Shown here: one piece after another, positions 5,207-52,869 of the stretch
Layout of the letters: each line of letters opens with the position of its first letter
How positions within the stretch are numbered: the first letter of the stretch is position 1
NCBI GenBank assembly: GCA_021779255.1
Contig: JAJYBC010000001.1
Coordinates: 1-52,869, forward strand
Source of the DNA: a bacterium
GTDB taxonomy: Bacteria > Patescibacteriota > Minisyncoccia > CAIUEV01
Length of the DNA: 52,869 nucleotides
Direction of reading: 5' to 3'
Notes under the pieces: model-generated
The model's database searches: none
Told to the model about the DNA's origin: nothing
What the model saw: the letters and a program-made list of their open reading frames with translations, nothing else
Translations under genes and position numbers: made by a program

Positions 5207-5231
5207 GGGCGGGCACAAGGCCCGCCCCTAC
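5207..5231. repeat. GC-rich hairpin with CTAC tail (REP-like)
   Basis: GGGCGGGC-ACAAG-GCCCGCCC (8-bp perfect stem) followed by CTAC. The reverse complement reads GTAG plus palindrome. Confidence 0.6.
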
Positions 5232-5390: not shown

Positions 5391-5765
5391 TTATACGTCT
5401 TCCTTGCGCATAAAACCAGATTTTTTGAGAGTAACTTTGAATTCCGGTTCGTAGCGATTATTGTTTTCGTCGACAATTTTGACGTTTTGACCTTTCATAA
5501 TAGTGGCCATAGCGATGTCGTTGATGAGCTGTTGATCGGCATTGATATCGTCGCGCAGACTTTCTAGTTTATCATAAGCTTCACCCATATCAACTTGCAC
5601 GTCGTTTTCAATTTGTTGTTTTTTAGTGCGCATTGTCTTGATTTCTTCAATTAGATTTTTGTAACGCTTGTCGTTGTCTAGCCCGTCTTTGTACATAGCG
5701 CGCAAATCTTTGAGCTTTTTTTTCTTCTCTTGCATGCGGTCAAAAACCGCTTGGATGTTTTGCAT
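5391..5765 (-). CDS. Hypothetical coiled-coil protein (124 aa)
   Basis: Longest ORF at this locus, charged heptad-like sequence, no recognisable motif. It is bracketed by REP-like elements and sits next to tRNA-Gln. Confidence 0.5.
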   Translation of the reverse strand: MQNIQAVFDRMQEKKKKLKDLRAMYKDGLDNDKRYKNLIEEIKTMRTKKQQIENDVQVDMGEAYDKLESLRDDINADQQLINDIAMATIMKGQNVKIVDENNNRYEPEFKVTLKKSGFMRKEDV

Positions 5766-5854
5766 GATCGATTTTTAAAATTTATTTTTTAGCACCTTTC
5801 GATTATAAAGAAGCTTTTTATTTTTCAAAAGTTTAGAAGGATGATATGGTGAAA

Positions 5855-5956
5855 GGGCAGGTCGCGACCTGCCCGTACAAGGCCTGCCCGTACAAGCCTT
5901 GCCCGTACTAAATCATTCCCGCCAAGGCCTGCCCGTACAAGATCTGCCCGTACGTA
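5855..5956. repeat. REP-like element: 20-bp perfect palindrome plus five copies of CTGCCCGTAC
   Basis: GGGCAGGTCGCGACCTGCCC (5855-5874), then CCTGCCCGTACAAGG-type units at about 5868, 5883, 5897, 5928 and 5943. Confidence 0.9.
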
Positions 5957-5982
5957 CTGATAAAAAATTAAAAATTCTATTT

Positions 5983-6555
5983 ATGAGTAAAATCTTCTTA
6001 CAATCTTTCTTGAAAAATCCGCGGCAAACTGGGTCGATTGTCCCCAGTTCGGTTTTTTTGGTTAAAAAATTAACCGATCCGGTAGATTATGAAAAATCTA
6101 AAATTTTGGTGGAGTTTGGAGCAGGGAACGGAGTGGTAACCAAAACGATTTTGCGTAAAATGCGTGATGACGCGATCTTGGTTTGCATAGAGATAGAGGA
6201 AAAACTTTGTCGAGAAATCAAAAAAAAGATTAAAGATCCGCGTTTGAAGTTGATCTGTGGTGGGGCAGGGGATTTGGGTGATTTTTTGCGGGAACTAAAA
6301 ATTGAGCAGGTGGATTACATCATTTCAGAACTACCGTTGGTTAGTTTGCCAGCTGAAATGGTGGAAAATATCTTAATTTCGGCTAAAAAATATCTAAAGC
6401 CGGACGGTAAATACATTCAAATGCAATATTCGCTACTAGGGCTCAAGAAATTAAAAAGACATTTTTCGGAGGTAAAAATTAGCTTTACGCCACTAAATAT
6501 TCCACCCAGTTTTGTATATATTTGTTCTTTATCACTCTCCCTTGACGAGTGCTAA
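5983..6555 (+). CDS. Class I SAM-dependent methyltransferase (COG3963-like)
   Basis: MSKIFLQSFLKNPRQTGSIVPSS... and VEFGAGNGVVT (SAM motif I). The track start TTG 5899 would read through the repeat array, so ATG 5983 is preferred. Confidence 0.65.
   Translation: MSKIFLQSFLKNPRQTGSIVPSSVFLVKKLTDPVDYEKSKILVEFGAGNGVVTKTILRKMRDDAILVCIEIEEKLCREIKKKIKDPRLKLICGGAGDLGDFLRELKIEQVDYIISELPLVSLPAEMVENILISAKKYLKPDGKYIQMQYSLLGLKKLKRHFSEVKISFTPLNIPPSFVYICSLSLSLDEC
6529..6555 (+). promoter_or_regulatory. CIRCE (HrcA operator) upstream of groES
   Basis: TTATCACTC-N9-GAGTGCTAA versus consensus TTAGCACTC-N9-GAGTGCTAA (1 mismatch). It overlaps the last codons and stop of the methyltransferase ORF. Confidence 0.75.
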
Positions 6556-6679
6556 ATTTATGATAAGATGAAATTGGCTAGAGTGTATTTCTAATACGCT
6601 CGCGATGTTCGCGTGATCTAGGCGAACAATTATTCGCTCGTGCGAGGTGTTAATAATTTAATATTTAAATCAAAAAGCT

Positions 6680-6955
6680 ATGGCAACGTTGATCAAACCC
6701 TTGGGAGACAATGTTCTGATCAAGGTCACGAAATTAGAGAAGAAAACTAAAAGTGGTATTGTTTTGCCGGAAACGGCCGAAGACGAAAAACCGCAAATGG
6801 GCGAAGTTATGGCTGTCGGTAATGACGAAAAGAAAATTCAAGTTAAGACTGGCGATAAGATTATTTTTGCCAAATATGCCGGCACCGAAGTTAAAATGGA
6901 TGATGAAGAATATTTAATTTTAAAATCGGAAGACATTTTGGCAATAGTAATGTAA
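6680..6955 (+). CDS. groES: Co-chaperonin GroES
   Basis: [16 protein letters not shown]...SGIVLPETA...GEVMAVG...[14 protein letters not shown], typical Cpn10. Confidence 0.95.
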
Positions 6956-6958
6956 GAA

Positions 6959-7047
6959 GGGACAGGTCGCGACCTGTCCGTACCGACCTGTCCGTACCGA
7001 CCTGTCCGTACCGACCTGTCCGTACCGACCTGTCCGTACCGACTCGG
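6959..7047. repeat. REP-like element: 20-bp perfect palindrome plus a 5x tandem 14-bp array
   Basis: GGACAGGTCGCGACCTGTCC (6960-6979). CGACCTGTCCGTAC repeats at 6970, 6984, 6998, 7012 and 7026, then a partial CGACTCGG. Confidence 0.95.
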
Positions 7048-7052
7048 TAATG

Positions 7053-8600
7053 TTATTCCACGATAATTTCCCCTGACAATTTATTGATTTTTTTGATTTT
7101 AATCAATAAAGCCAAAAAAGCTCCAGTAAAAAGGAAAAGAGAAGAAATGGCAAAAACAGTGTCATAAGCGGAAATCTGGGCTTTTAAGATAACTAACGAA
7201 ATAAATGTCGGGAGGTAGTTTGTCATTGGCTTTAAACCAATAGCGACTGAATTGATAGCGCTATGACTGGCGATGGTGAGAACGTTGGAATTGGTGGCGT
7301 CGCTCAAAATAGTACTAAAAATAGCGATGCCAAAAGCTCCCGCAATGTTTCTGGCTAAGGCGAGAATAGACGAAGCGATGCCAATTTCATTGACGGGAAC
7401 GATAGAAGCGATAATATTGGTTCTTTGCGCCATACCGAGACCCATACCAAAGGCCATAATGGAAAGGGGAATGATTATACCCAAGGCTCCCGACCGAGGG
7501 TCAAGATAAGAAAAAAGGTAAAGGCCGATTCCGGCGATGAAAGTGCTGATAGCAATAATAAAGCGAGGCTGTATTTTTTCTCCTAAAAAAACTCCCAAGG
7601 GGGAAGAAGCTACCATAATAAAGGCCATAGGGATAAATAAATAACCGGTTTGGGTGGCATCGTAGCCTAAAAAAGTTTGAGCGAAGATCGGAATCAAAAA
7701 AATACCTCCCATCATGCCCATAAAAATTAGAAAATTATTGATGAGAGTATGAATAAAAGCGCCAATTTTGAAAAATTTGAAATCGACGAGTGGCTCGGGA
7801 TGTTTTTTTTCAATCCGGATAAAAACAGCGAGAAAAATTAAGACGGAAAGATAGCAAGAAAAACTGTTGAGCGAGGTCCAGCCCCATTCCAATCCTTTGT
7901 CAAGAACCAAAACTAAAGCGGAAAGAGCGATGCCTAAAGTGCCGGCGCCCCAAAAATCAAATTTGACTGTTTTCTTTTCCGAAACGGATTCCCGAATAAA
8001 AGACATGGCCATCAAAATACCGATAATTCCGATAGGTAAGTTAATTAAAAAGACTGATCGCCAGCTAAAATTATCAATTAACGGACCTCCAATTAACGGT
8101 CCAAAGACAGCCGCGGCCGCGAAAGAGGCCGACCAAATTCCAAGAGCCTGAGCTCTTTCTTTGCCTTCGCGAAAGGTAACGGCAATGATGGCCATAGCGG
8201 TTGGATAATCGGCTGAACTGGCGATGGCTTGAATAATACGAAAAACAATCATAGAACTTAAATCCCACGCAAGTCCGGCTAGAACTGAACCGAAAATAAA
8301 AATAGAAAAACCCAAGATATAAACTTTTTTTCGGCCAATAGTGTCGCCTAATTTTCCCCAGATGGGGACGAAAATAGCGTTGGCTAAAATGTAAGCGGTA
8401 GCGATCCAGCCGGCTGCCGAAACGGTAATATTAAAATCGCCAATGATTTTTGGTAAAGCCAAATTGACGATAGTTTGATCGAGCCGTCCCAAAAAAGTAC
8501 CGATAATAACCGTAAGGAGCACCAACCAGCGCAAGTTATCGGGATTATTTTTGATTGATCTTATTTTTTTAATCATAGAAGCTAATCTTTGAAAATCCAA
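7053..8600 (-). CDS. MFS efflux transporter, DHA2 (EmrB/QacA-like, 14-TMS) family
   Basis: 515 aa polytopic protein with N-terminal LDQTIVNLALP and GKLGDTIGRKK MFS motifs. Confidence 0.8.
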   Translation of the reverse strand: MDFQRLASMIKKIRSIKNNPDNLRWLVLLTVIIGTFLGRLDQTIVNLALPKIIGDFNITVSAAGWIATAYILANAIFVPIWGKLGDTIGRKKVYILGFSIFIFGSVLAGLAWDLSSMIVFRIIQAIASSADYPTAMAIIAVTFREGKERAQALGIWSASFAAAAVFGPLIGGPLIDNFSWRSVFLINLPIGIIGILMAMSFIRESVSEKKTVKFDFWGAGTLGIALSALVLVLDKGLEWGWTSLNSFSCYLSVLIFLAVFIRIEKKHPEPLVDFKFFKIGAFIHTLINNFLIFMGMMGGIFLIPIFAQTFLGYDATQTGYLFIPMAFIMVASSPLGVFLGEKIQPRFIIAISTFIAGIGLYLFSYLDPRSGALGIIIPLSIMAFGMGLGMAQRTNIIASIVPVNEIGIASSILALARNIAGAFGIAIFSTILSDATNSNVLTIASHSAINSVAIGLKPMTNYLPTFISLVILKAQISAYDTVFAISSLFLFTGAFLALLIKIKKINKLSGEIIVE

Positions 8601-11157: not shown

Positions 11158-11184
11158 GGGACAGGTCGCGACCTGGCCGGACAG
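11158..11184. repeat. Degenerate REP-like palindrome
   Basis: GGGACAGGTCGCGACCTGGCCGGACAG shares the CAGGTCGCGACCTG core with 5855 and 6960. Confidence 0.8.
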
Positions 11185-30920: not shown

Positions 30921-32180
30921 TTATTTGAGCCATTCTTTGTCGCGTAGTTTTCGATGGTAAGAGATAGCAAAGCGGTGAGCTTCGTTGCGAATTTTTTCAA
31001 TTAATTTTAAATCGAACGGAAAAATATTTTTGTGTGCAGATTTGTCGAATTTATTTTGGTCAAAATATAAATCCAATTTTTTACGAGTTGGACCTTTGGC
31101 TACGGCTAAGATCAAAATATTTTCTAATTTTATTTTTTTAAGTAACTCGGCAGCCATATTAAAATGTCCCTTACCTCCGTCTAGAACTATTAAATCGGGA
31201 TGCGGCCAGTTATGATTAAACCTTCTCGCTAAAATTTCTTGCATCATAGCAATGTCATCAATACCCTTAATATTTTTGATTTTAAATTTACGGTAGTCAG
31301 ATTTTTTAGGTTCGTTCTTCTCAAAAACAACCATTGATCCCACAGCGTAGGCGCCGGAGATATTGGAAATGTCGTAACATTCGATGCGATGTTGCCATTG
31401 TAGAGACGCCCTATAGGGCGTCTCTACAATGGCAACATCATTGATAAAATCGTCCGATAATAATGCTACATCTCGGATGTGTTGTAGGGCAAAAATTTGA
31501 TTGCGAATTTTTTGAGCTTTTTCGTACGCTTTTTTTTGGGAAAATTCTTGCATTTCTTTTTCTAATTTTTTGAGTAAACTATTTTTTTTGCCTCGTAAAA
31601 TCATTTCAATATTGCGGATATTTTTTTTATAATCTGCAGGACTAATTTGGCCGGCGTAAGGTCCGGGGCAATAACCAAGTTGAAAATCAAGGCAACCTTT
31701 TTCCGTTTTTTGTTGACCGGAATGAAAAGGAAATATTTTTTTTAAAATTCGGAGAGCCACGGAAATTTGTTTCCGAGAAGTATAAGGACCGTAAATTTTA
31801 GGCGTTGAATATTTTTTCAAATCAGTTTTTCTAACAATTATTATTCTCGGAAATTTGTCTTTTTTGGTGATCAAAAGATACGAAAAACTTTTGTCATCCT
31901 TAGCTTTAATATTATATTTCGGCTGATTTTTTTTGATTAAGTTAGCTTCCAAAATTAGAGCCTCAAGTGTATTTTGAGTCGATTGAATTTTAATTTTGGC
32001 AATTTGAGAAACCAGTTGTTCGGTTTTATTATCGTGAGCACCAGTAAAATAAGATCCGACGCGATTGCGAAGAGAAGTGGCTTTACCAATATAAATAAGT
32101 CTATTCTGGCTGTCATAAAACTTATAGATACCCGGTGATTTAGGCAGAGAGGAGACAGTTTTTTTGAGATTGAGATGCAT
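30921..32180 (-). CDS. uvrC: Excinuclease ABC subunit C, short form lacking the C-terminal (HhH)2 domain
   Basis: GIY-YIG (PGIYKFYDSQNRLIYIGKATSLRNRV), RIECYDISN and RNEAHRFAISYHR blocks. Only 419 aa. Confidence 0.85.
   Translation of the reverse strand: MHLNLKKTVSSLPKSPGIYKFYDSQNRLIYIGKATSLRNRVGSYFTGAHDNKTEQLVSQIAKIKIQSTQNTLEALILEANLIKKNQPKYNIKAKDDKSFSYLLITKKDKFPRIIIVRKTDLKKYSTPKIYGPYTSRKQISVALRILKKIFPFHSGQQKTEKGCLDFQLGYCPGPYAGQISPADYKKNIRNIEMILRGKKNSLLKKLEKEMQEFSQKKAYEKAQKIRNQIFALQHIRDVALLSDDFINDVAIVETPYRASLQWQHRIECYDISNISGAYAVGSMVVFEKNEPKKSDYRKFKIKNIKGIDDIAMMQEILARRFNHNWPHPDLIVLDGGKGHFNMAAELLKKIKLENILILAVAKGPTRKKLDLYFDQNKFDKSAHKNIFPFDLKLIEKIRNEAHRFAISYHRKLRDKEWLK
31388..31439. repeat. 52-bp perfect palindrome inside the uvrC coding sequence
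   Basis: GATGTTGCCATTGTAGAGACGCCCTA|TAGGGCGTCTCTACAATGGCAACATC. All 26 arm positions were checked pairwise. Confidence 0.97.
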
Positions 32181-36068: not shown

Positions 36069-36785
36069 TTAGGCGTTATCGATAGCCTGTAATTTTTTTG
36101 ACGACTTTGGGCACAAGAAGTAAATGTTATCATCCGGTGTTATTTTGCAAAGACCGAATAGATCTTCGACAGAAAGGTGAGAAATTTCCCAATCAGTTTT
36201 TTTGGAATCGTATTGTATTATCGGGATATATCTGTTTACGCACAAACCAATCGGACCATAATATTGAGCCATTGGATAATATTGAAAAAATTCTCCCCAA
36301 ATAGTTCCCGGGAAAACTATGGTTGGTCTAGTCTCTCGCCAGCCGATAGGAAAACTTTTTCTTTGCTCCAATAGACAACGAGCGTGTCGTTCTCCCAAGT
36401 TAGCGTCCAATTCTCGAGCTCTTTGGAAAATAAGACTTCTTCGATCAAGACTGATTCCGAACTTTTTTTTCATTTTCTTCTCTATTTTTACAAACCAGAG
36501 CAAATCTACTTTTACCAACTTTGTTTTACTTGGCTTTTTTAAAGCTAGACCCAAGTCTAAATTTAGCTGTGCGGCATTAGCTGTCATTTCTCGATAAAAG
36601 TCTTCTTCTTTTTTTTTAAAGATAGGAATTAAATTTAGCTCCGAGACAGAGATAGTTGAGGGTTCGGTTGTGTCGTTAAGAATTTTCCAGCCATTTTTAT
36701 CTTTGAATTGCAAAGATGGCGAAGGTAACGGTTCGGTGGAAATTCTAAATCTTTTTGCTCTGGTTTTGGAATGAACAGCACTCAT
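36069..36785 (-). CDS. Orphan hypothetical protein (238 aa)
   Basis: Start trimmed to ATG 36785, preceded by AAAGGAGG at an 8-nt spacing. No motif recognised. A terminator-like hairpin with a U-run lies at about 36015-36045. Confidence 0.55.
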   Translation of the reverse strand: MSAVHSKTRAKRFRISTEPLPSPSLQFKDKNGWKILNDTTEPSTISVSELNLIPIFKKKEEDFYREMTANAAQLNLDLGLALKKPSKTKLVKVDLLWFVKIEKKMKKKFGISLDRRSLIFQRARELDANLGERHARCLLEQRKSFPIGWRETRPTIVFPGTIWGEFFQYYPMAQYYGPIGLCVNRYIPIIQYDSKKTDWEISHLSVEDLFGLCKITPDDNIYFLCPKSSKKLQAIDNA

Positions 36786-36885
36786 TTTAAAATCCTCCTT
36801 TTCTCGTGACAAAAATATTTGCGACAAAAAGCAGACATTGTAAAGATCTTTTGTTCTTCCCTTTTCTCACGGTTTATCCTAAATG

Positions 36886-37161
36886 TCAACAGATTTTATT
36901 TTGCTCATAAAGCTCGCTGTGCGTTCCAATGGCCATGAAAATTATTTCGTCATTCCCTTTCTCCACGTAAAGAGCTCTGACGTCGCCGGTGATATTAATA
37001 CTGTGGAGACCTTGTAGCCTACCAACAAGAATATGATTATGTAGCAACGGAAAATTTTTATTGATAGAAAAAATTGCCACTCTCGCTCGAAATTTAGTTT
37101 GAATCCCGAGCGGACATTTTCTAAGATTCTTAATAAATTTTTTGCTATAACTTATTATCAC
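36886..37161 (-). CDS. RelE/YafQ-family mRNA interferase toxin
   Basis: HNHILVGRLQGLHSINITGDVRALYVEKGNDEIIFMAIGTHSELY fits the RelE/YafQ C-terminal pattern. 91 aa, downstream of a DinJ-like gene. Confidence 0.7.
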   Translation of the reverse strand: MIISYSKKFIKNLRKCPLGIQTKFRARVAIFSINKNFPLLHNHILVGRLQGLHSINITGDVRALYVEKGNDEIIFMAIGTHSELYEQNKIC

Positions 37162-37170
37162 TAAAGAAGT

Positions 37171-37467
37171 TTATTTATTATTTGCTCTGATGACTTTTTC
37201 ATCCAAAAATCTTAAAGATTCTTCTACACTACTAAATTTATGGTAATCTCCCTGTGCAATTTCTTTCTCCGACTCTTTTAGCATATCGAGCAAATATTTT
37301 GTCGGTTCTTCATACTGAGAGGAGAAAAAAACCGTTTCTGTTTCGACAAAATGGCGAAGGTAGGCATTGAGTAAACTACTCAGGCTGAAACCCAAATTCT
37401 TGGCGATTTTTTGGGCTTTCTTTTTGATTTTGAGATCGGTTTTGATACTGATTAAAGCGGAGTTCAT
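37171..37467 (-). CDS. RelB/DinJ-family antitoxin
   Basis: ISIKTDLKIKKKAQKIAKNLGFSLSSLLNAYLRHF is a ribbon-helix-helix DinJ-type N-terminus. Confidence 0.7.
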   Translation of the reverse strand: MNSALISIKTDLKIKKKAQKIAKNLGFSLSSLLNAYLRHFVETETVFFSSQYEEPTKYLLDMLKESEKEIAQGDYHKFSSVEESLRFLDEKVIRANNK

Positions 37468-51086: not shown

Positions 51087-51974
51087 TTAGTTTTTACGAC
51101 ACGTTAGAAACTCAATGTAGGGAGCGTTGGTACCGGGAGCAGAGCCAGCGTTATAGATTCCGATGCCAGTTCCCGATCCGTAGATTCCGATACCTGTAGT
51201 TGAATATTCTGTGGTATGCCAATATACTCCAGCGTTTGAGCCACCACCATTATGAGTCCATCCCCATCCACCAGAAAAATTCCCCCAATGTGCATGTCCC
51301 GGATCGTAAACCCCATGTGCATGTCCTGGATCATAAACTCCGTGTGAGTGAAGTCCGATAGCTCGATTCTCTCCATCCCCCAAGGGTTGTCCCACTGTTA
51401 AATTCTTGTTGGCAGAGTTTTGAGTTCCCACCAGGTATCTGCCCTTGGCAGCCGGAACTTCACTCCAACCGGCGGGACAAGTAGTGAGGTCAAAATAAGC
51501 AATTGTTCCAGAGGGAGTGCTATCGCCACCGACTAATTCCCAAGAGGAACCATTATACATATTCATTTTTTTGGTATCTGTGTTGACAATAACTAATCCC
51601 AGTTGCGGTGAAATAATTGCATCTCTCTGTGCTGTGGTCATGCGAGGAGGTAAGAAGCCATTGCTGGTTGTTTCAATATTTAATCCAGTAGCCCGAATAG
51701 TGCCATTAACATCCAGAGTGGCTTGCGGATTATTGGTGCCAATTCCAACTAATCCTCTCTCGACAATTAAACCCAGAGTAGCTCCACCAGTGTTCAAAAT
51801 TAAACCTCCGGTTTTGATTTGGCCGGCGTTGCCAGTGTTAAGTGGCGCCGCAATATTGCCACCTGGTGGCATTTGATCAGGCTCTACCCAAGCTTTGGCG
51901 TAGAGGGTAAAAATAATCGCGAGAAAAGTAAACAAAAAAAGAAATTTTATTTTTTTAGGCATTTTTAGACTCAA
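51087..51974 (-). CDS. Secreted phage-tail-collar-domain (tail-fibre-like) protein
   Basis: Signal peptide, ATLDVNGTIRATG fibre-like block, GTIAYFDLTTCPAGWSEV...GRYLVG collar block, and tandem HGVYDPGHA x2 and GIGIYGSG repeats. Ends APYIEFLTCRKN. Confidence 0.6.
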   Translation of the reverse strand: MSLKMPKKIKFLFLFTFLAIIFTLYAKAWVEPDQMPPGGNIAAPLNTGNAGQIKTGGLILNTGGATLGLIVERGLVGIGTNNPQATLDVNGTIRATGLNIETTSNGFLPPRMTTAQRDAIISPQLGLVIVNTDTKKMNMYNGSSWELVGGDSTPSGTIAYFDLTTCPAGWSEVPAAKGRYLVGTQNSANKNLTVGQPLGDGENRAIGLHSHGVYDPGHAHGVYDPGHAHWGNFSGGWGWTHNGGGSNAGVYWHTTEYSTTGIGIYGSGTGIGIYNAGSAPGTNAPYIEFLTCRKN

Positions 51975-52718: not shown

Positions 52719-52869
52719 TCAATTTTTGCGACACGTTAGAAACTCAATGTAGGGAGCGTTGGTACCGGGAGCAGAGCCAGCATTATTTATTCCGATACCC
52801 GTTCCCGATCCATAAATTCCAATATTACTTCCTGATCCATAAATTCCAATACCAACTCCTCTTTTATCA
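52719..52869 (-). CDS. Paralog of the 51087-51974 tail-collar protein, C-terminal end only (5' end off the window)
   Basis: Translation ...GIGIYGSGSNIGIYGSGTGIGINNAGSAPGTNAPYIEFLTCRKN*. 52729-52782 are identical to 51097-51150. Confidence 0.7.
   Translation of the reverse strand, partial: DKRGVGIGIYGSGSNIGIYGSGTGIGINNAGSAPGTNAPYIEFLTCRKN

Follow-up and report, generated by a model that had tools for sequence, protein, structure and literature searches.

A candidate REP element with a tandem half-palindrome array between groES and a transporter gene in a small Patescibacteriota genome

Background

What kind of element occupies the 97-bp gap that separates groES from a convergent major facilitator superfamily (MFS) transporter gene in a small patescibacterial genome, and how did the tandem array within it arise? 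The gap lies in contig JAJYBC010000001.1 of assembly GCA_021779255.1 (Patescibacteriota; Minisyncoccia; CAIUEV01), the whole of which (52,869 nucleotides) is referred to below as the window. An initial annotation, made from the letters of the window, had described a perfect 20-bp palindrome followed by five head-to-tail copies of its own 3' arm plus GTAC, and had read them as a repetitive extragenic palindromic (REP) element mobilised by a REP-associated tyrosine transposase (RAYT). With a probability of roughly 0.6, the element is considered here to be a copy of a dispersed REP family (family A) that bears a secondary, local array of half-arm units made by hairpin-assisted slippage. The REP/RAYT part of this reading is supported, because an exact 24-mer of the family is tied to RAYT genes outside this genome and because the copies within the genome are dispersed and covary.

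REPs are short hairpins of single-stranded DNA that are recognised by RAYT/TnpA(REP) enzymes of the HUH-Y1 kind. To our knowledge, REP/RAYT systems are widespread, the way REPs spread and the role of RAYTs in cells are largely obscure, and the enzymes assayed so far are few and proteobacterial. The window is contig C46 of a genome of 843,505 bp (G000; 50 contigs, 36.8% G+C), the assembly of which is 94% complete; the other contigs are designated in the same way.

Results

The element in the groES–MFS gap

The palindrome (Table 1) reads GGACAGGTCG and CGACCTGTCC around its dyad centre and starts 4 nt past the groES stop codon, TAA at 6953-6955. It is perfect from 6960 to 6979, the start previously given, 6959, taking in one extra G. 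The array detected by Tandem Repeats Finder has a period of 14 and 100% matches (score 148), which bears out the five head-to-tail copies of arm plus GTAC. Its unit 1 is the 3' arm of the palindrome itself, and its end is a 4-nt partial unit, CGAC (7040-7043), followed by TCGGTAATG. The stop codon of the MFS gene lies 9 nt past the array, so that the array does fall in the gap between the convergent genes.

The motif CCTGYCCGTAC occurs ten times in the window at one mismatch or less, against 0.25 expected from shuffles, and the 14-mer core occurs three times against 0.04 expected. Chance is therefore excluded. As single-stranded DNA, the palindrome gives an 8-bp stem with a CGCG loop, and the DNA fold of a 31-nt piece containing it is -8 kcal/mol. 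The single-stranded form of the whole element gives a terminal hairpin, in which the single 5' arm may pair instead with any copy of the 3' arm. The units abut without spacers, which is not the layout of repeats and unique spacers of a CRISPR array, and no Rfam match was found at E ≤ 1 on either strand of window positions 5500-7400.

A dispersed and covarying family

The motif occurs well beyond a few loci. In the 843-kb genome the 14-mer core is present in 17 exact copies, and the 20-mer in 22 copies at one mismatch or less and 34 at two or less, a looser arm-based census giving about 38 loci. The family A element of this genome is of the GGRCRGGTCGCGACCYGYCC-GTAC type, with about 34-38 dispersed copies, and on the + strand of the window it reads G(T/A)AG - GGRCRGGTCG.CGACCYGYCC - GTAC. 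According to a crude map of open reading frames (ORFs), which gives the genome a coding share of about 89%, 22 of the 34 copies are extragenic.

Two stem pairs covary over the 34 copies: pair 3-18 is G:C in 22, A:T in 10 and non-Watson-Crick in 2, and pair 5-16 is A:T in 23, G:C in 10 and G-T in 1. The family A hairpin is maintained via compensatory stem changes. It had been argued from the sister copy at 5855 alone that the hairpin is under selection. This copy, of the stem variant GGGCAGG...CCTGCCC, does differ from the groES copy by a compensated pair, G:C versus A:T, and the wider count points the same way. The decayed array of the sister copy spans 5868-5953, and the locus from 5855 to 5953 is identical in two other assemblies.

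In the 32 copies that can be oriented, the GTAC side has G in 28, T in 29, and A and C in all 32. The opposite side reads G-N-A-G, mostly GAAG, with G at -1 in 28, A at -2 in 22, and G or A at -4 in 31. The canonical tag is GT[AG]G at the 5' foot; here GTAC stands on one side and the degenerate G-N-A-G on the other, and it is the latter side that a true GTAG abuts in foreign copies. Seen from the 3' end of the gene nearest upstream, 14 of 17 extragenic copies (p = 0.013), the groES copy among them, present the side without GTAC first.

Some copies lie in frame within genes, namely those for ABC-ATPase-like, miaA-like, ksgA-like, PMT-like and nusA-tail proteins, and gene ends of the form ATG-TAA/TAG are supplied by the element edge at groES, topA and the pyruvate kinase gene. 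REPs tagged with GTAG are known both to supply stop codons and to sit in frame in genes (PMC3733652). Five copies lie within about 200 bp of contig ends. The arrangement of a REP doublet forming hairpin (REPIN), i.e. two inverted REPs at fixed spacing, was not found among the copies, each of which is either a lone palindrome or a direct array of half-arms; the sole inverted pair is a remnant in C28, its two members about 95 nt apart.

Family A outside this genome

Of 60 relatives, only one, G003, carries the palindrome. It belongs to the same family and to another genus, and one of its two copies is in frame inside a RAYT gene, between the HuH motif and the Y motif, where it is preceded by a 24-nt half-arm repeat. 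When the exact 24-mer GGRCAGGTCGCGACCTGYCCGTAC was searched in 185,579 species genomes, at least 119 foreign stretches were obtained, the chance expectation being estimated at about 0.3. Among the matches listed, the hosts are Bacteroidota (Flavobacterium, Aequorivita, Rufibacter, Saprospiraceae, Lutibacter and Chitinophagaceae), Patescibacteria (Magasanikbacteria, Falkowbacteria and Saccharibacteria), WOR-1 and one gammaproteobacterial metagenome-assembled genome.

The association with RAYT genes was counted in 80 of these stretches, taken as 8-kb loci, and a RAYT gene flanked or interrupted by the palindrome is present in eight. Since a RAYT gene occupies about 0.6 kb in a genome of several Mb, its presence in 10% of 8-kb loci is a large excess. 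The best tblastn match of all eight foreign RAYTs is the G003 RAYT (79-166 bits, at least 138 in six), and their matches to the three RAYTs of the present genome reach 96 bits or less. With eight of the 80 loci carrying a RAYT, every one of which matches G003 best, family A is, as far as these comparisons indicate, the REP of one specific RAYT clade that moved between phyla.

RAYT genes and other REP families of the genome

A Y1 transposase, on which the initial annotation made its reading depend, is encoded three times. The RAYT-like HUH/Y1 genes lie at C48:36498-37058, C16:1800-2315 (minus strand) and C1:36427-37020 (minus strand), as detected with Pfam Y1_Tnp and NCBIfam. The RAYT model NF047646 gives 69 and 65 bits where the IS200 model NF033573 gives 28 and 18; these RAYT scores fall under the curated cut-off of NF047646, 80 bits, those of Pfam Y1_Tnp being above its cut-off. 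The HuH motif IMPNHIH and the tyrosine helix Y-I-(K/R)-x-N-P are kept in all four aligned RAYT proteins.

A census of GC-rich perfect hairpins gives at least four families besides A. They include family B (GTAGGGGCGTATTGCAATACGCCCCTAC), family C (AGAGACGGGTCT-N-AGACCCGTCTCT), family D (TAGAGACGCCC..GGGCGTCTCTA) and further REP-like hairpins such as GGGCACCC..GGGTGCCC. Each of the three RAYT-like genes is framed by, or has in frame, GTAG-tagged hairpins of families B, C or D. The C48 gene is framed by inverted GTAG-tagged hairpins of family C (locus 36270-37210), and the C16 gene by those of family D (locus 1600-2560), another family D hairpin lying in frame. The flanking hairpins in C48 and C16 are extended outward by tandem arrays of 21-23 bp, which start exactly at ^TAC of the CTAC tag.

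Family A itself flanks none of the three genes. It does form, at C28:598-712 (L011), two inverted copies around about 65 nt of a RAYT promoter and 5' region (TTGAGGATTTTTTAATATTCTTTTTATCAGAATTTAATATT) with no gene inside; 40 of the first 41 nt of this insert are identical to the upstream region of the C1 RAYT gene. By its sequence, the locus looks like a REPtron that lost its RAYT, and the gene-less layout is likewise found in two other assemblies. A search of the genome by tblastn with the G003 RAYT gave only the three paralogues, at 36-40% identity, and no cognate G003-like RAYT, in an assembly that is 94% complete. This absence is not secure, because a RAYT gene flanked by family A would tend to end up on a small, unbinned contig.

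Several further observations concern these families. In all, the REP-like families of this small genome number at least five, and another tagged hairpin, GGGCGGGCACAAGGCCCGCCC-CTAC, is found at window 5207-5227 and also at C33:12757, C33:14860 and C40:5232. A 52-bp perfect palindrome at window 31388-31439 has a family D REP as its core (GTAGAGACGCCCTATAGGGCGTCTCTAC) with mirrored flanks; it resembles the 56-bp palindrome with which C26 begins, and suggests that palindromes are lengthened through template switching. The groES and groEL genes are unlinked in this genome, and groEL, at C41:3993-5489, has a family B hairpin about 100 nt past its 3' end.

Rules and distribution of the half-arm arrays

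About 17 of the 38 family A loci carry extra copies of one arm, the unit being one arm, the adjacent tag and a short linker. Arrays of 13, 14 or 15 nt are all on the GTAC side (11 of 11). The rule that arrays are always on that side was rejected, since it fails for the arrays of 21-24 nt, which are on the GTAG/GTTG-like side (C1:11296, C9:2160, C15:8980 and C26). Every unit has its start between about -2 and +3 nt from the dyad centre, inside the CGCG of the hairpin loop, and the junction between GTAC and CGACC is found at at least seven loci. In most arrays the arm variant is that of the neighbouring palindrome. Units proximal to the palindrome are identical, and distal ones are decayed, with a recurrent change of ACC to ATC, or show another arm variant (C1:40011, C16:14480). 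Three arrays end in partial units of 4-5 nt (CGAC, CGACC and CGAT). Mirrored arrays occur in the perfect palindrome of 56 bp with which C26 opens, and at C2:7853.

The arrays are unevenly distributed among the hairpin families, an adjacent array being present at 10 of 25 hairpins of family A, 3 of 5 of family C, 1 of 6 of family D, none of 9 of family B and 1 of 44 other GC-rich hairpins. Conversely counted, 11-12 of the 25 short-period tandem arrays of the genome abut a REP hairpin. In the foreign loci, half-arm arrays are found at 18 of 125 family A palindromes, and several of them lie inside RAYT genes, with units of 18, 21 or 24 nt that keep the frame. The novelty that had been claimed for such arrays in genomes of the candidate phyla radiation holds in so far as none is described in the literature searched; the foreign counts show the arrays to be common in family A and no peculiarity of that radiation.

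A C-to-T change from GACCTG to GATCTG, which creates GATC, recurs in distal units at six loci (C5:3887, C33:7999, C48:4159, C39:8036, window 5940 and G003 C50), and is also present, compensated, in the palindrome at C37:7892. It may reflect a mutational hot spot (e.g. cytosine methylation) or common descent of the arrays.

Array length in other assemblies

The identical groES gene is present in other assemblies. The groES–MFS array has 5.3 units in the window and 2.3 in GCA_027351095.1; two MEGAHIT contigs from ENA also have 2.3 units, their flanks being otherwise identical. A second tandem array of the window, the perfect AT-rich AAGAAATATTATT x 7.6 (100% identity, 455-553), which lies upstream of a four-enzyme cassette and has no adjacent hairpin, served as a control. 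In ENA sample ERZ27236853 this 13-nt array is reduced from 7.6 to 2.6 copies, and both shortened arrays (32 and 34 nt) are as short as an in-phase array can be if it spans 28 nt or more, as in de Bruijn collapse at k = 29. The ENA contigs were therefore rejected as strain variation, the control having collapsed alike in ERZ27236853, and they are uninformative on array length. In GCA_027351095.1, both loci are on one contig, 99.96-100% identical to the window, and the control array keeps its 7.6 copies. Because the control is intact there, the three-unit difference between this assembly and the window, seen in assembled sequence, is likely to be real.

At the C5 and C1:40011 arrays, the unit count is equal in the other assemblies, with one base substitution in one unit at C5. 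Insertion polymorphism, in the form of an empty site or of an allele containing a RAYT, was not found, the C28, C5 and C1 layouts being the same in the other assemblies.

The 3' flank of groES

In nine relatives, groES ends in the A(V/I)(V/I)E type (e.g. ...AVVE and stop) and is followed by canonical terminators made of a hairpin and a T-run. In G003, a decayed family-A-like sequence directly follows the groES stop, and in another genome, G004, other REP types occupy the position 3' of groES. Together with the REP in the window, these cases indicate that REPs have landed repeatedly in the 3' flank of groES in this bacterial family. In the present genome, no T-run follows the palindrome on either strand, and the one candidate that a scan for intrinsic terminators picks out is a weak 5-bp stem at 7037-7049. 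As a side effect, the groES and MFS transcripts may have their 3' end at the hairpin. REPs of E. coli have been shown to act as transcript 3' ends or stabilisers, and by analogy such an action is possible for this element.

Copies in coding regions and composite repeats

At C39:7981-8040, a family A palindrome with a 15-nt array is in frame in a NusA-like C-terminal tail (KH motif GKGGQNVRLASRLTGYEIDI) and encodes DLPVQ x 3. At C1:11296-11420, the linker of an ABC-ATPase-like gene carries a 21-nt half-arm array, encoding (DLPQPQH)x5, and a family A copy. The orthologous linker in the other genus, G003 C50:6466-6620, contains family A, family B and a third hairpin. The linker is thus a REP hot spot inside a coding region.

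Three family A copies (C16:13400-13640, C19:1-170 and C25:1-190) are embedded in a common AT-rich repeat of about 130 bp or more. Two of the three are at contig starts, and C37, C8 and C4 share parts of the context (ATTTATTAAATTGATA...). The AT-rich repeat, at which the assembly is broken, may represent a composite repeat of larger size. Tandem repeats of 27 nt at window 51284-51346 and 52789-52860 and at C30:226-317 (e.g. CCCCATGTGCATGTCCCGGATCATAAA x 2.3) are unrelated to the REP families and probably code for 9-residue repeats.

Table 1. Positions of family A copies and neighbouring genes in the window
Feature	Position	Strand	Basis or remark
groES (Cpn10)	6680..6955	+	Pfam Cpn10 on identical protein; C-terminus ...AIVM and stop
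GAAG, degenerate GTAG-like tag	6956..6959	+	Side without GTAC, directly after groES stop
Family A REP hairpin, perfect 20-bp palindrome GGACAGGTCGCGACCTGTCC	6960..6979	.	Read, fold, covariation
GTAC tag ('foot') of the element	6980..6983	.	Conserved in oriented copies
Tandem array of CGACCTGTCCGTAC (3' arm + GTAC), 5.3 copies	6970..7043	+	Tandem Repeats Finder
MFS transporter gene, convergent	7053..8600	-	Pfam MFS_1, 194 bits
Sister family A copy, palindrome GGGCAGGTCGCGACCTGCCC at 5855-5874 with decayed array of CCTGCCCGTACAAGG, period 15 bp	5855..5953	+	
Third family A copy GGACAGGTCGCGACCTGGCC, one mismatch, degenerate tag, no array	11159..11178	+	

Discussion

The origin of the arrays

Whatever the mechanism, the arrays have the form expected if the segment from the apical CGCG loop via one arm to the GTAC tag were re-copied beside the palindrome. 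We infer snap-back slippage as the preferred mechanism. A polymerase entering at the tag side would copy one arm, upon which the template hairpin would re-pair and eject the nascent end at the apex; this end would then re-prime on CG microhomology just outside the tag and copy arm and tag again. Slippage between the perfect 14-nt units could subsequently alter the copy number. Junctions of 13, 14 and 15 nt fit an overlap on the central CG dinucleotides, partial units such as those at three array ends are typical of homology-guided slippage, and the mirrored arrays together with the arm covariation point to template switching at hairpins. The 100% homogeneity of the groES array, in a genome in which no cognate RAYT was found, also speaks for slippage. 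As the source of the arrays, slippage is ranked ahead of enzyme action, at somewhat less than an even chance.

Several observations weigh against this account. An array frequency of 17 in 38 and a junction shared by at least seven loci are hard to obtain by chance microhomology. The arrays are family-specific, present at A, C and D and at none of nine hairpins of the equally stable family B, which is unlike generic hairpin stalling; the latter is itself weakened as an explanation, since the nine family B copies have stable stems of 10-16 bp and no arrays. The concentration of arrays at and inside RAYT genes would fit enzyme action, and the lack of a cognate RAYT is insecure in a 94% complete assembly from which a repeat-flanked gene may have escaped binning. 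The difference in copy number rests on assemblies, and one ENA assembly collapsed an unrelated array likewise. The assignment as a REP is also affected, for GTAC differs from GT[AG]G, and the Stenotrophomonas enzyme no longer cleaved once GTAC had been substituted (PMC8266576).

The arrays might instead be made by a RAYT, which would nick the loop (at about TCG^CGA), allow re-synthesis of arm and tag from the 3'-OH, nick again past the tag and rejoin the product to the enzyme-bound 5' end, so that each cycle would add one unit beside the palindrome; a rolling-circle-like amplification has been proposed for bacterial interspersed mosaic elements (BIMEs) by Ton-Hoang et al. 2012 (PMC3333891). 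Such a scheme gives exactly L-[R-GTAC]n with no need for prior microhomology, and would account for units that start in the loop, for growth proximal to the palindrome, for the high array frequency (17 of 38) beyond chance microhomology, for arrays at families A, C and D rather than B, and for those that flank and invade RAYT genes. The start of the family C and D arrays at ^TAC of CTAC coincides with the cut of the E. coli enzyme, CC^TAC, and strand transfer in vitro assembled tandem copies (PMC3333891). For the Marinomonas enzyme, a change of the guide from GTAG to GTAC moved cleavage to between G and T and between G and A (PMC8266576), and every unit has G^TAC. The cuts required here (G^C in the loop and C^N after GTAC), however, match no measured cleavage specificity, the junction position wobbles among 13, 14 and 15 nt, three arrays have the partial ends of 4-5 nt typical of homology-guided slippage, and the genome yields no G003-like RAYT, yet the array is homogeneous and apparently variable. 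Cuts at C^T (as in E. coli) and at G^T (with a GTAC guide) were considered and rejected, as neither regenerates the junction of GTAC with CGACC from a single copy, and no cleavage site is claimed. Enzyme action is thus held to be a doubtful, secondary explanation, and it is about as doubtful that half-REP arrays are natural footprints of RAYT catalysis, one cycle per unit, with distal units keeping earlier arm states. If this were true, the cleavage sites of subclass-2.4-like RAYTs could be deduced from the phase and junctions of arrays in different genomes, and 'domesticated' RAYTs would be active in vivo, ultra-small Patescibacteria included.

Two further explanations were considered. The layout of a palindrome with direct half-sites at a regular spacing of 14 nt resembles a double-stranded protein-binding module, with a protein that would bind as a dimer to the palindrome and as a monomer to each half-site, as at iterons or operators, and would regulate the neighbouring genes; some copies are indeed in divergent promoter regions (C5:3835, window 5855 and C39:6498). 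This is improbable, since the period varies by locus (13, 14, 15, 21 or 24 nt), many copies have no array, distal units decay freely, copies are in frame inside unrelated genes, the 24-mer stands next to RAYT genes in four or more phyla, and a candidate regulator did not come to light. Nothing was seen to indicate an independent function of the array. Least credible of all is that the element is a mere local terminator of groES and/or the MFS gene, duplicated and with no mobile history: a GC-rich hairpin between convergent genes, at the position of the groES terminator of the relatives, would suit this role, but it is at odds with the lack of a T-run on either strand, the 34 dispersed copies, some of them intragenic, and the spread across phyla with its RAYT association.

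Comparison with known systems

By most of the features examined, the sequence evidence supports the element as a REP of the RAYT subclass-2.4-like kind; the fit is not clean for the GT[AG]G tag and for a cognate RAYT in the genome. Accordingly, the earlier REP/RAYT interpretation is upheld as regards dispersal, covariation and the link to RAYT genes in eight of 80 foreign loci and in G003, and it is weakened in that the RAYT genes of the genome itself are not flanked by family A and the tag is GTAC. The RAYT enzymes of the genome resemble subclass 2.4 of Quentin et al. 2018 in their features, inverted bracketing hairpins tagged with GTAG being among the hallmarks of that subclass of TnpA(Y1) (PMC6006769). 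Shared with the subclass 2.4 REPtrons (Quentin, Siguier, Chandler, Fichant 2018, PMC6006769) are the GC-rich hairpin with a G-C stem bottom (GGG/CCC in most copies), the tetranucleotide tags at the foot, including 'double-foot' forms, RAYTs between inverted REPs, and a patchy cross-phylum spread that is rich in Bacteroidota. In contrast, the conserved tag of family A is GTAC instead of GT[AG]G, the GTAG-like tag being degenerate (GAAG), and no RAYT of this genome is flanked by family A. The REPs of that account are called species-specific, whereas the family A 24-mer is identical across phyla. Half-hairpin tandem arrays are absent from the same account, in which the word 'tandem' does not occur and only 'short repeats' in a variable insertion are mentioned (PMC6006769).

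In BIMEs and REP-REPIN clusters (PMC3333891; Bertels & Rainey 2011, PMC3116915; Di Nocera et al. 2013, PMC3733652), head-to-tail amplification, often with flanking DNA, likewise occurs beside RAYT genes, REPs supply stop codons or lie in frame, and positions downstream of genes are preferred. What is amplified there is whole REPs, pairs or REPINs of tens to hundreds of bp, unlike the present unit of half a hairpin plus tag, which is 13-24 nt and accompanied by a single opposite arm, so that folding with this arm is open to the last unit only. Tandem whole REPs, REPINs and BIMEs have thus been published, and the reiteration of half a hairpin with its tag, of which no description was found in the REP/RAYT literature searched, appears to be little described.

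The ends of IS200/IS605 elements (IS608, ISDra2) are related through the HUH-Y1 family, and have in common with family A a subterminal hairpin, a 5' guide tetranucleotide and single-stranded DNA. Family A differs in having no transposase gene inside the element and no two different ends, and the proteins of the genome score far higher with the RAYT model than with the IS200 one (69 versus 28 bits). Like the Rickettsia palindromic elements, family A has members in frame in housekeeping genes (ABC ATPase-like, miaA-like, ksgA-like and nusA-tail), but those elements are about 100-150 bp long with no known RAYT partner, and family A is shorter, with its groES copy extragenic.

Implications

For annotation, half-arm arrays are of concern in that they break assemblies, collapse in some assemblers, create spurious or extended ORFs, and can be in frame in real genes. 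For the biochemistry of RAYTs, family A offers a defined substrate, that is, one REP that is identical to the base in at least four phyla and associated with a single RAYT clade, and it is open to work at the bench, as cultivable strains of Flavobacterium, Aequorivita and Rufibacter carry it. The recurrent signature of the arrays (a unit of arm and tag, a start in the loop and growth from the palindrome) is a constraint on any mechanism that may be proposed. For the organism itself, it is noteworthy that a reduced genome of 0.84 Mb keeps at least five REP families and three RAYT genes, and that one family may have lost its gene. The apparently orphaned family A therefore bears on the persistence of REPs without their enzyme.

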